Sequence record: PZ386980.1
DNA from: a phage
Direction: 5' to 3' (one strand)
Length of the DNA: 64,000 nucleotides
A model generated the notes under the pieces. That model did no database searches and was not told the DNA's origin. It saw only the letters and a program-made list of their open reading frames with translations. Every line of letters starts with the position of its first letter. Position 1 is the first letter of the stretch. Shown one piece after another: positions 35,390 through 38,557 of this stretch. The translations under genes and the position numbers were made by a program.

Positions 35390-35971
35390 CTAACCGAGCT
35401 TTTTAGTTAATTCATTCCAATGTTTTCTACACAAAGAAACATAAATTTCATCACCAATACAGATTTGATTACCTTCTTTAACTGGTGTTCCATCTTCCAT
35501 TAATCGAGCTGTCATAATCGCTTTTTTGCCGCAATGACAAACTGCCTTTAGTTCAATAAGTTTATCTGCAATCGCTAAAAGTTCTTTAGAACCTTCAAAC
35601 AATTTTCCAGCGAAATCAGTCCTTAATCCATAAGCCATAACAGGAACATTATATGTATCAACAATTCGGCTCAATTGATGCACTTGTTCAGTTTTTAAAA
35701 ACTGAGCTTCATCTACAAATACACAATGAATATCTTTTTGTGCTTCAGCCCATTTATAGAACTCGAAAATATCCATATCATCTGTAATAATATTCGCTTC
35801 CTGTTTAATTCCAATGCGAGAAACAACTTCACAGACAGAATCGCGAGTATCAATAGCAGGCTTAAGAACTAATACACTCATTCCACGTTCTTTATAATTA
35901 TGTGCAGCAGTCAAAAGAGAAGCAGATTTTCCAGCATTCATTGCTGCATAAGTAAAAATTAAACTCGCCAT
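35390..35971 (-). CDS. tk: thymidine kinase
   Basis: 193 aa; P-loop AMNAGKS; C-terminal zinc cysteines; typical TK length. Confidence 0.9.
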   Translation of the reverse strand: MASLIFTYAAMNAGKSASLLTAAHNYKERGMSVLVLKPAIDTRDSVCEVVSRIGIKQEANIITDDMDIFEFYKWAEAQKDIHCVFVDEAQFLKTEQVHQLSRIVDTYNVPVMAYGLRTDFAGKLFEGSKELLAIADKLIELKAVCHCGKKAIMTARLMEDGTPVKEGNQICIGDEIYVSLCRKHWNELTKKLG

Positions 35972-35980
35972 ATCACCTTC

Positions 35981-36166
35981 TTAAAGCGTATTCACATAAG
36001 CTATTAATTCATTTTCTTTCTTATCAAACCGATCAGCAAATTCTTCCTGCTGTTCAGGAGATAGCGGGCCGTATTCATCATAAAAGGTGTTTGCTTCTGT
36101 ATGCTCATCTAGAAGTTCATGGATAAGCTCAAACAATTTATCTTTTTGTTCTTTACTCAGACTCAT
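35981..36166 (-). CDS. hypothetical acidic protein
   Basis: 61-aa ORF. Confidence 0.45.
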   Translation of the reverse strand: MSLSKEQKDKLFELIHELLDEHTEANTFYDEYGPLSPEQQEEFADRFDKKENELIAYVNTL

Positions 36167-36332
36167 ATATTAATTTCCAGGAGTTTTAAAATAATTCGCT
36201 TTTGCTTAAATATTTCCATAGTTAAATGACTAGTATCTTTTTGACCGATTCCAATGGCAAAACCTTTATTAACAGCGAGTTCAATTAAATTATCAAGCTC
36301 ACGTAACACTTCGTATTGTAACTCAAAACTAT

Positions 36333-36560
36333 TCATTTTGGTTTACCTTCTTTAACGAAATCAGGATAAGGATAAAATCCTGAATAAAATCCTTCACCTT
36401 TATGATTGATGCATCCTTTATTAGAACAATAGCACCAATAATCGAAATCACAAGCCATTTCATCATTACATAAAGCAAAAACAACCGGCCACTTACACTT
36501 TTCACAATGGGCATTTTTAAGAATACTAGTTTGGCTCATAACCATGTCACCTTCAAGCAA
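36333..36560 (-). CDS. cysteine-rich small protein
   Basis: 75 aa with CEKCKW...CNDEMACDFDYWCYCSNKGCINH. Confidence 0.45.
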   Translation of the reverse strand: MLEGDMVMSQTSILKNAHCEKCKWPVVFALCNDEMACDFDYWCYCSNKGCINHKGEGFYSGFYPYPDFVKEGKPK

Positions 36561-36763
36561 TATTCTTCTACATGCTGTTTACGACCTTTCTTATCAATAA
36601 AGGTATATTCAACGAATGTTCCAATGTAGTCTTTATCTACATCATGTGGACTATTAATTGGGCATTTAGTACGACAAATGCGTTCCCATTGACGAATAAT
36701 TACTGCTTTGTTTTTAGGATCAAATGGATGTGGGTAATGTACTTTCATAATAATGGTTCCCAA
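36536..36763 (-). CDS. hypothetical protein
   Basis: 75-aa ORF. Confidence 0.45.
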   Translation of the reverse strand: MGTIIMKVHYPHPFDPKNKAVIIRQWERICRTKCPINSPHDVDKDYIGTFVEYTFIDKKGRKQHVEEYCLKVTWL

Positions 36764-37212
36764 TCAACAATCACAATTTCTAATTTAGAGGAATATGTAT
36801 CTAAAATCCCCTCAATAATATCCCAGTTCCCTTTACCTATGCCTGCACCAATCCTAGGCATATAGATTGTAGGTTTAATCAGTTTATTTTCACCAAACTC
36901 ATTTAATTCTAACATACAATTCATTAAAGCGGAATACTCAAAATTTGGCCCTGGTTGAAATTGAGTATAAAGATTAAAGCAGTAAGCTTTATGAGTCCTA
37001 AAGTATTTTTCATAAACTGAATAAGAACCAAGTTTAGTTACATCACCCCATTCAGTCTGTAATTTATCAGCTTCCAAAATTTTAGGAAAAGCTTTAGTTA
37101 ATTGACCTGCGACTCCAGCTTTCATCGTATGAAAACAATTGCATCCATGCGCAATATTTTTACCTTCAGCGAAAAGGGCGACAATATCGCCCTTGATATA
37201 TTTTACAATCAT
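36745..37212 (-). CDS. macro-domain-like protein (ADP-ribose binding/hydrolase candidate)
   Basis: GDIV...IAHGCNCF..GVAG and PRIGAGIGKG motifs resemble macro-domain glycine-rich loops. Confidence 0.5.
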   Translation of the reverse strand: MIVKYIKGDIVALFAEGKNIAHGCNCFHTMKAGVAGQLTKAFPKILEADKLQTEWGDVTKLGSYSVYEKYFRTHKAYCFNLYTQFQPGPNFEYSALMNCMLELNEFGENKLIKPTIYMPRIGAGIGKGNWDIIEGILDTYSSKLEIVIVDWEPLL

Positions 37213-37550
37213 CTAGTACTCAATCCTCGATTATAAGAATCTACCAAACGGTCAACCATTGAATGACAAGCGGCTTTATCTTTCTCCTCCGCAACTGAAC
37301 ATTCTAAAGTATTCCACTTTTTAGCATATCGTTTTAATAATGTATCGTTTTTGTATCTGCTTGATTTATCTCTTTCTCCGTCTTTGTATGCATATATTAA
37401 TTTCTGTGCAAATTCAGCTTGGCATGCTTTATTTTTCCCACAATAATCTGCCGCAGTGCGGTTTACATACTCTCTAATTTCAGTATATGATGTATCTGCT
37501 AACGCAGAAAATGAAATTAATCCTATACATAAAACCAAAATTTTAGTCAT
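37209..37550 (-). CDS. secreted/periplasmic protein
   Basis: 113 aa with signal peptide MTKILVLCIGLISFSALA. Confidence 0.55.
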   Translation of the reverse strand: MTKILVLCIGLISFSALADTSYTEIREYVNRTAADYCGKNKACQAEFAQKLIYAYKDGERDKSSRYKNDTLLKRYAKKWNTLECSVAEEKDKAACHSMVDRLVDSYNRGLSTR

Positions 37551-38088
37551 TTACTATTTCCAAAAGTTTATTATTTTTAAGGTAATTAGCCTTTTCTAGG
37601 ACTTCAGAAGCATATTTAGAACCTGCTTTAACATTCCATCCCGAATTATAAGAGGATATTGCTTTTCTTATATCGCCCTTATGTATATTTAACCAATAAG
37701 AAAGTTCAATGTACGCCCAGGAAGCTGAATTGGACCGTTTATTCAACATTCTTTTTATTTCAGCATCGGTCATATTATAACCAAGTTCCTTAACTCTTGC
37801 TCGCATAGTAGGCAAATAATTTTGGAACATTCCATAAGCGTGATGCTTTGGTTTAGATTTTAAATTAACTCCGCCAGAGCTTTCTTGCCATAAAATAGCA
37901 GCCATTATATGACCTAATCCACTCTTGTGGATGTTTTTGTGTGTTTTATATTTTCCATCCTTAGAAAATTGTTCCCCGAATTGATACGCGTAACGCATGT
38001 TATCGAGTTGGACATTACTGAAAGTATGCTCGGAGCTATGTGCCATCATTGAAATGGCCAATAGACCAGCGAGTAGTGCTTTTCTCAT
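37543..38088 (-). CDS. periplasmic lytic transglycosylase (SLT-domain) candidate
   Basis: Signal peptide plus LWQESSGG...AYGMFQ catalytic-glutamate motif. Confidence 0.6.
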   Translation of the reverse strand: MRKALLAGLLAISMMAHSSEHTFSNVQLDNMRYAYQFGEQFSKDGKYKTHKNIHKSGLGHIMAAILWQESSGGVNLKSKPKHHAYGMFQNYLPTMRARVKELGYNMTDAEIKRMLNKRSNSASWAYIELSYWLNIHKGDIRKAISSYNSGWNVKAGSKYASEVLEKANYLKNNKLLEIVND

Positions 38089-38095
38089 GCTTACC

Positions 38096-38557
38096 TCATT
38101 GAGTTTTAATTACTGCTTTAGAAGCCTTTCCTGGTAAACGACGACTGTTAATAATTGCCATCCTACATTGGAGTGACGGGTCTTTGAACTTCTCATTAGG
38201 TTTACAAACCGTAAATCCAAGCCAAAGATTTCCATCTGTGATTTCTAAACGTCCAGGACGATATTCAACCCCATCAATAAAATCCTCGTCAATGTCAGGA
38301 CGCGGAGGCATACTCAGAAATTCATTAACTTCTAAAACATGGTCTTTTATTTTATGGAATAATTCAAAAACGTATGTCTCATCAATCTCCCGTTGAATTG
38401 CGCGATCAAGAAGATGCTGAGAATATTTTAGATGAAACGATGAGACCCCTGCTGCTTTTGATGCCTCACGAATCTCATTGTTAATTTGACGAAACTCCGA
38501 CTCAAAGTGACGACGAAGCTTATTTCGACGGATAAAAACTTCTGTATTGATAGTCAT
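38096..38557 (-). CDS. regB: site-specific endoribonuclease RegB
   Basis: 153 aa, directly downstream of early promoter; sequence recalled as T4 RegB-like. Confidence 0.7.
   Translation of the reverse strand: MTINTEVFIRRNKLRRHFESEFRQINNEIREASKAAGVSSFHLKYSQHLLDRAIQREIDETYVFELFHKIKDHVLEVNEFLSMPPRPDIDEDFIDGVEYRPGRLEITDGNLWLGFTVCKPNEKFKDPSLQCRMAIINSRRLPGKASKAVIKTQ

Follow-up and report, generated by a model that had tools for sequence, protein, structure and literature searches.

The tk.4 gene and its product

The stretch of phage DNA analysed here (sequence record PZ386980.1), referred to as the window, is 64,000 nucleotides long, and all positions are counted from its first letter. On its minus strand, at positions 36745–37212, lies an open reading frame (ORF) that, in the ORF list of the window, opens with ATG and encodes a protein of 155 amino acids (aa), which we identify as the single-domain macrodomain protein Tk.4, the ortholog of Tk.4/AdfM of phage T4. 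A first-pass annotation of the window had described a 155-aa ORF at exactly these coordinates, without giving the strand, and had placed it in the interval between tk and regB. Both statements agree with our analysis, in which tk is found at 35390–35971 (Pfam TK, 6e-61) and regB at 38096–38557 (Pfam REGB_T4, 8e-69). The two motifs that had been singled out in the protein are also present, and a codon-by-codon check against the raw sequence locates IAHGCNCFHTMKAGVAG at residues 20–36 and PRIGAGIGKG at residues 119–128.

A 2.6-kilobase stretch around the gene is 100% identical at the DNA level to phages RB51 and RB68 (Tequatrovirus), and is 97–99% identical in many further T4-like phages. The RefSeq record of RB51 lists the ORF as gene tk.4 with the product 'phosphatase' and the note 'contains A1pp phosphatase motif', while other phage records label tk.4 as 'macro domain protein' or 'Appr-1-p processing domain protein'. 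The window protein has the same length as T4 Tk.4 and matches it at 153 of 155 positions (98.7%), and the gene order regB-vs.1-vs-tk.4-tk.3 is common to RB51 and T4; because of this identity and the identical synteny, the window gene is the same gene as T4 tk.4. Relatives of Tk.4 were detected by tblastn in 2734 of 50,697 phage records, across many unrelated lineages.

The reading frame overlaps both of its neighbours by an ATGA. The stop codon of vs and the start codon of tk.4 share positions 37209–37212 on the minus strand, as read from the raw sequence and the ORF coordinates, an arrangement suggestive of translational coupling, and the stop codon of tk.4 and the start codon of tk.3 share positions 36745–36748 on the same strand, as read from the raw sequence and the RB51 annotation. 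With overlaps at both ends, tk.4 therefore belongs to a compact string of genes, vs-tk.4-tk.3, that would be translated together. The sequence also contains a Shine-Dalgarno-like GAGGA located 11 nucleotides upstream of the tk.4 ATG. The identity to RB51 and RB68 together with their annotation, the tblastn relatives, the Pfam and PHROG matches described below and the ATGA overlaps indicate that the ORF is more than a chance reading frame, and we regard its assignment as the tk.4/AdfM macrodomain of a T4-like phage as practically certain.

Against the Pfam Macro profile (PF01661), Tk.4 scores 25.0 bits, with a gathering score of 22, and its residues 22–132 span profile positions 2–113 of 118; most Tk.4 homologs have a precomputed match to the same profile, and PHROG 335 ('phosphatase') matches Tk.4 at 1.4e-64. 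Among solved structures, a single-sequence search with Tk.4 matched BT1257 (2e-8), Poa1p, TARG1/OARD1, SCO6735 and DarG macrodomains, and a profile of 60 homologs matched BT1257 (1.5e-18), TARG1 (1.2e-15), SCO6735 (1.6e-14), Mycobacterium tuberculosis DarG (6.5e-14) and Poa1p (4.4e-13). The AlphaFold2 model of Tk.4 (predicted local distance difference test, pLDDT, 95.3; predicted template modelling score, pTM, 0.90) displays the three-layer α/β/α macro fold, and a Foldseek search of the PDB with this model returned TARG1, BT1257, Poa1p and DarG as its first matches. The motifs of the ADP-ribose site, consisting of an Asn after strand 2, a Gly-rich loop 1 and a diphosphate-binding loop 2, are all found in the protein. 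The first-pass annotation had called the protein macro-domain-like and had proposed structure prediction against macro-domain families as a check; the Pfam match, the homolog profile, the predicted fold and the Foldseek neighbours all bear this out.

The closest neighbours of Tk.4, in structure as well as in sequence, form the ALC1/TARG1-like class (TARG1, DarG, SCO6735, BT1257 and Poa1p), rather than the MacroD, PARG or viral X-domain classes. By sequence and predicted structure, Tk.4 is thus a genuine stand-alone macrodomain of the ALC1/TARG1-like class. A1pp, which stands for Appr-1''-p phosphatase, is the older name of the macro domain. Orthologs of tk.4 were already matched to the A1pp domain in a comparative paper from 2006 (PMC1524935).

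Composition of the active site

All statements on conservation refer to an alignment of 60 Tk.4 homologs, in which 13 positions are invariant: G23, N25, G33, A35, D49, Y82, T83, Q84, P119, I121, G122, G124 and W130. The segment A21-H22-G23-C24-N25-C26 (codons at 37135–37152, minus strand, as for all codons given here) contains N25, the conserved macrodomain Asn, which is equivalent to N27 of SCO6735 and N23 of PhiKZ gp104; around it, H22, C24 and C26 are each at least 90% conserved. The Gly-rich loop after strand 2, M30-K31-A32-G33-V34-A35-G36 (37105–37125), is ADP-ribose-binding loop 1. Further along the protein, Y82-T83-Q84 (36961–36969) places Q84 at the position of TARG1 K84, DarG K80 and SCO6735 Gln85, and P119-R-I-G122-A-G124-I-G-K-G128 (36829–36858) forms diphosphate-binding loop 2, in which G122 and G124 correspond to G126 and G128 of SCO6735.

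Alignments made with a hidden Markov model (HMM), MAFFT and hhalign agree in placing Q84 on the catalytic Lys of TARG1 (K84) and DarG (K80 of the Thermus aquaticus protein, within FPTK). The second catalytic residue of TARG1, D125, has G126 in its place in Tk.4. Aligned with SCO6735, whose sequence was taken from the PDB search, N25, Q84, G122 and G124 of Tk.4 pair with N27, Q85, G126 and G128, and BT1257, the best structural match, has Gln at the Q84 position too. Judged from these alignments, the active site of Tk.4 is of a Gln type and not of the DarG/TARG1 type; because Q84 replaces the catalytic Lys and G126 replaces D125, Tk.4 is not a DarG-type enzyme. The wider phage family, including the phage protein Adpp discussed below, keeps the motif N-x-Y-[T/S/G]-Q, with a sole exception among about 75 sequences. 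In this exception, L029:8001-8450 (IMGVR_UViG_2974573495_000001), Lys replaces the Gln at the catalytic position ('NLYTKF'), so that the DarG/TARG1-type residue has been restored naturally; the variant could help to probe the mechanism.

Other macrodomains of the class differ from Tk.4 in residues and architecture. Human TARG1/OARD1 (4J5R) has a catalytic dyad, K84/D125, where Tk.4 has Q84/G126, and yeast Poa1p (6LFQ) has Ser at the Q84 position, with its H23 and S30 aligned to H22 and T29 of Tk.4. The DarG proteins of M. tuberculosis (5M3I) and T. aquaticus (5M31/5M3E) combine the catalytic Lys of FPTK with a C-terminal DarT-binding domain and a darTG operon, whereas Tk.4 has YTQ at this site, and its gene has no darT as neighbour but lies among other phage genes, between vs and tk.3 (DUF7202). 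In PADLOC, Tk.4 matches positions 2–145 of the 329-position DarG profile, and the DarT-binding domain is absent from its 155 aa. Membership of the DarG family was considered and rejected, as the NCBIfam and PADLOC matches score too low, the domain architecture differs and the catalytic Lys is missing.

A precedent for such an active site is the Streptomyces coelicolor protein SCO6735 (PDB 5E3B), a member of the same ALC1/TARG1-like class that lacks the catalytic Lys and Asp, has Gln85 at the catalytic position and efficiently removes DarT-made thymidine ADP-ribose from DNA (PMC9411070). In that protein, activity is lost in the Q85A mutant, almost lost in N27S and substantially lower in G128E; in the chemistry proposed, the Gln positions the distal ribose and a water held by the backbone starts the reaction (PMC9411070). 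Tk.4 has the same Gln (Q85/Q84), the same supporting Asn (N27/N25) and the same pair of glycines (G126, G128/G122, G124), and the three residues that correspond to these mutations, Q84, N25 and G124, are all invariant among its homologs. Both proteins are stand-alone, neither being encoded beside a DarT. There are also clear differences, since SCO6735 is a bacterial, chromosomal protein with about 20% identity to Tk.4 (1e-8), and has an isoelectric point (pI) of 9.7 and a net charge of +6, compared with 6.3 and -1 for Tk.4. SCO6735 and BT1257 have a longer loop after the Gln, which Tk.4 lacks, and the basic mobile loop and the lysines K34, K89 and K94 used by SCO6735 for DNA binding are not conserved in Tk.4.

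A phage protein that shares the name AdfM provides a further comparison. PhiKZ gp104, independently named 'AdfM', removes T-linked ADP-ribose from an oligonucleotide in vitro and neutralises DarT2 toxicity (Cell Rep 2026, PMC13309987), and its N23A mutant has reduced activity (PMC13309987). We compared Tk.4 with the translation of the gp104 gene sequence printed in that paper. The PhiKZ protein has FPTK and matches M. tuberculosis DarG at 9e-25, but its match to Tk.4 extends over only 23 residues in BLASTP (E 0.018). Because of the FPTK motif, the DarG match and the near-absence of a match to Tk.4, the T4 and PhiKZ AdfM proteins are, by sequence, members of different macrodomain subfamilies, Gln-type and Lys-type, which converge on the same defence under the same name.

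The sole two differences between the window protein and T4 Tk.4 are adjacent and lie in the Gly-rich loop, where the RB51 allele has K31-A32 and T4 has G31-S32. In the two codons concerned (37117–37122, minus strand), five of the six nucleotides differ from T4, with extra synonymous changes nearby. Most homologs have Gly at position 31, which makes the allele of RB51, and not that of T4, the exception. Proteins with at least 99% identity to the RB51 allele occur in about 37 phage records. K34 of SCO6735 aligns with A32 of Tk.4, and K31 of the RB51 allele adjoins that position. The K31-A32 pair may be a small recombination patch, or may be a selected change beside the position of the DNA-binding K34 of SCO6735.

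Counter-defence function and alternative roles

DarT2 ADP-ribosylates thymidines of single-stranded DNA and thereby blocks replication (PMC11825919). When a T4 transposon library was grown on Escherichia coli expressing DarTG2, tk.4 was the single significant hit (HIDEN-SEQ preprint of November 2025, bioRxiv 10.1101/2025.11.20.689424); its read counts dropped specifically with DarTG2 present, and a clean T4 tk.4 knock-out was sensitised on DarTG2 cells but not on control cells with the empty vector. In the preprint the gene received the new name adfM, for anti-DarT factor, macrodomain (10.1101/2025.11.20.689424). With 153 of 155 residues in common between the T4 protein and that of the window, this phenotype supports the proposal of the first-pass annotation that a phage macrodomain could reverse a host defence based on ADP-ribosylation. 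The proposal is right but already known, the A1pp/macro assignment dating from 2006 and the role of T4 AdfM from late 2025.

The Gln-type site makes the chemistry for an anti-DarT2 role plausible by analogy with SCO6735. We infer that Tk.4 itself would act as a DNA de-ADP-ribosylating enzyme, and on the same analogy it probably works by hydrolysing thymidine-linked ADP-ribose off phage DNA. In the mechanism we propose, Tk.4 would bind the ADP-ribose that host DarT2 has attached to thymidines in single-stranded phage DNA, and would hydrolyse the bond between ribose and base so that replication can continue. Gln84, held by Asn25, would position the substrate for attack by an activated water, as proposed for SCO6735.

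Several observations weigh against this reading. The HIDEN-SEQ study contains no enzymology, and describes removal of ADP-ribose from DNA as something that 'seems likely'; its genetic evidence comes from one preprint, from the special conditions of M9 glucose medium at 30 °C and from T4 only (10.1101/2025.11.20.689424). We found no biochemical assay of the activity of Tk.4 itself in the literature. According to the alignments, the protein lacks both the catalytic Lys of DarG and TARG1 and the Asp of TARG1, and its match to the NCBIfam DarG model (NF048014) reaches 25.1 bits, with a cut-off of 250, over profile positions 2–146 of 338. The DNA-binding lysines K34 and K89 of SCO6735 are not conserved in Tk.4. 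In addition, the ADP-ribose-1''-phosphate phosphatase Adpp is by sequence much nearer to Tk.4 (34% identity, E 3e-22) than are SCO6735 (20%, 1e-8) or PhiKZ AdfM (E 0.018).

Macrodomains are often promiscuous on ADP-ribose-1''-phosphate (ADPR-1''P) in vitro. Adpp is the nearest relative of Tk.4 with a measured enzymatic activity, and shares its conserved motifs, including the Gln; the two proteins are homologous over 140 aa. In Vibrio phage Gary, Adpp converts ADPR-1''P to ADP-ribose (ADPR) and acts jointly with Adps and Namat to defeat aRES, a defence based on a RES-domain NADase, and 15% of the NARP1 operons, which reconstitute nicotinamide adenine dinucleotide (NAD+), include this macro protein (bioRxiv 10.64898/2026.01.28.702374, January 2026). 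Gary Adpp is 100% identical to the protein of Vibrio phage GRLPWR. Tk.4 could accordingly be mainly a small-molecule enzyme, namely an ADPR-1''P phosphatase of the Poa1p/Adpp kind, as its RefSeq label says, that clears ADPR-1''P or related NAD-derived products, arising for example from RES-domain NADases or RNA repair. On that view, the phenotype on DarTG2 would be indirect or reflect a secondary activity. We consider this unlikely.

The genomic setting distinguishes the two proteins, as Adpp sits between Adps (Prs-like) and Namat (Nampt-like) and has its phenotype against aRES, whereas tk.4 has no such neighbours and has its phenotype against DarTG2. In Acinetobacter phage Aci05 (L004:404-3974) and in GRLPWR (L005:2632-5662), a macro gene resembling tk.4 has a Prs-like gene on one side and a Nampt-like gene on the other. 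An RNA ligase gene is found upstream in both, abutting the Prs-like gene in Aci05 and lying five genes upstream in GRLPWR. A new link between macro genes and NAD+ salvage was considered on this account and rejected, as the arrangement is the published NARP1-AP operon (Adps-Adpp-Namat) and does not apply to the T4 clade. For a survey of this linkage, 79 IMG/VR loci with 8-kilobase flanks were searched by tblastn with two Prs-like and two Nampt-like proteins. No Prs-like or Nampt-like gene was detected by tblastn within the 64-kilobase window, and none was present within 8 kilobases of the IMG/VR relatives at least 42% identical to Tk.4, although ten relatives more distant than 42% identity do have such a gene nearby.

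Adpp thus acts within a three-gene operon that is missing around tk.4 and its nearer relatives, and without NARP1 the conversion of the phosphate to ADPR restores no NAD+. The sole phenotype reported for tk.4 is moreover on DarTG2, a DNA ADP-ribosyltransferase, and Tk.4 could both de-ADP-ribosylate DNA and act on ADPR-1''P without the latter being what it is selected for. Dephosphorylation of ADPR-1''P is therefore credible as a secondary activity of Tk.4, and underlies the RefSeq label 'phosphatase'. It is unlikely to be what the protein is selected for in T4-type phages, which without NARP1 would gain little from ADPR.

A tentative possibility is that one Gln-site phage family harbours two counter-defence chemistries, with stand-alone Tk.4 cutting thymidine-linked ADP-ribose to counter DarT2 and NARP1-embedded Adpp dephosphorylating ADPR-1''P to counter aRES. 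Tk.4 would perhaps be bifunctional, and the K31-A32 allele might shift its specificity, for example towards DNA. If so, 'AdfM' would cover two mechanistically distinct enzymes, Gln-type in T4 and Lys-type in PhiKZ and DarG. Net charge and pI do not separate the T4-clade, NARP-linked and other phage members, and the DNA-acting PhiKZ gp104 is acidic. The loop-1 variant 'GIAP' was tried as a clade motif and rejected, being present in three of the eight NARP-linked members aligned and also in unlinked ones, so that it is no clean discriminator.

Neutralisation of DarT2 might instead come mainly from binding of the toxin or occlusion of its product, with Tk.4 acting as a stoichiometric mimic of an antitoxin and not as a catalyst. 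Such inhibition has a precedent in vitro, where catalytically dead SCO6735 (Q85A), DarG (K80A) and TARG1 (K84A) all inhibit DarT, SCO6735 most strongly (PMC9411070). The 155 aa of Tk.4, however, make up a macrodomain and nothing more, with no equivalent of the C-terminal domain through which DarG binds DarT, and what is invariant across phages of very different hosts is the ADP-ribose site (N25, Q84, G122 and G124), a pattern that fits an enzyme and not a partner-specific binder, making this explanation highly improbable.

That Tk.4 erases ADP-ribose, or RNA-linked ADP-ribose, set on host proteins or RNA by Alt, ModA and ModB of the phage itself, thereby tuning host take-over instead of countering a defence, is extremely improbable: T4-type phages do encode three ADP-ribosyltransferases (PMC9503650), and TARG1 and SCO6735, of the same class, act on ADP-ribosylated proteins too (PMC9411070), but we found no evidence in support, the knock-out was sensitised and the read counts fell specifically on DarTG2 cells, and the homologs are spread over the many unrelated lineages of the 2734 phage records, whose Alt/Mod content was not checked. 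CmdT, an mRNA ADP-ribosyltransferase, also restricts T4 strongly even though the phage carries tk.4 (PMC11618068), and Tk.4 therefore does not reverse that RNA modification efficiently.

An origin of the gene in bacteria, next to a toxin, was considered and rejected: the 'bacterial' homologs P0070 and P0098 from metagenome-assembled genomes sit on T4-like phage contigs, and there was no evidence of a toxin–antitoxin origin. In two assemblies, GCA_051648945.1 and GCA_051660865.1 (loci L002 and L003, labelled 'Bacilli bacterium' and 'Culicoidibacterales bacterium'), the macro gene lies amid genes for Rnl1, PNKP, deoxycytidine monophosphate (dCMP) deaminase, a T4 spanin and a Dda-like helicase; these loci are probably phage contigs in bacterial bins.

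Neighbouring genes and implications

Besides tk.4, the interval between tk and regB contains vs, vs.1 (SLT domain), tk.3 (DUF7202) and small ORFs. Compared with T4 (L085:1665-2244), the block of small genes from tk to tk.4 (35981–36748) is mosaic, since T4 has tk.1, tk.2 and tk.3 there, and RB51 has instead tk.2, RB32ORF110c, RB32ORF111c (phage zinc-binding domain PF23895) and tk.3. On the other side, vs (37209–37550, minus strand) and vs.1 (37543–38088, minus strand) encode proteins with hydrophobic N-termini resembling signal peptides (MTKILVLCIGLISFSALA... and MRKALLAGLLAISMMAHS...). The lytic-transglycosylase SLT domain of vs.1 scores 25 bits, and no Pfam family matches vs. As vs is annotated to modify valyl-tRNA synthetase, a cytoplasmic enzyme, an export signal on it is odd. 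In the HIDEN-SEQ preprint, vs was conditionally important in minimal medium (bioRxiv 10.1101/2025.11.20.689424).

The DarTG loci that tk.4 is reported to counter are anti-phage toxin–antitoxin modules. They are widespread, and T4-type phages are both model systems and relevant to therapy. That tk.4 is known as an anti-DarTG2 factor helps to predict host range, and this knowledge already exists. At the level of what the first-pass annotation proposed there is no new biology, and our analysis amounts to a modest mechanistic refinement of a preprint-level result. It adds an active site that is of the Gln type rather than a mimic of DarG, a nearest characterised relative that is a small-molecule phosphatase, and a name held in common with a PhiKZ protein of another subfamily. 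With AdfM standing for two non-orthologous proteins, this clash of nomenclature is likely to cause annotation errors, and the details added here warn against carrying the mechanism of DarG, or inhibitors of DarG, over to the phage protein.

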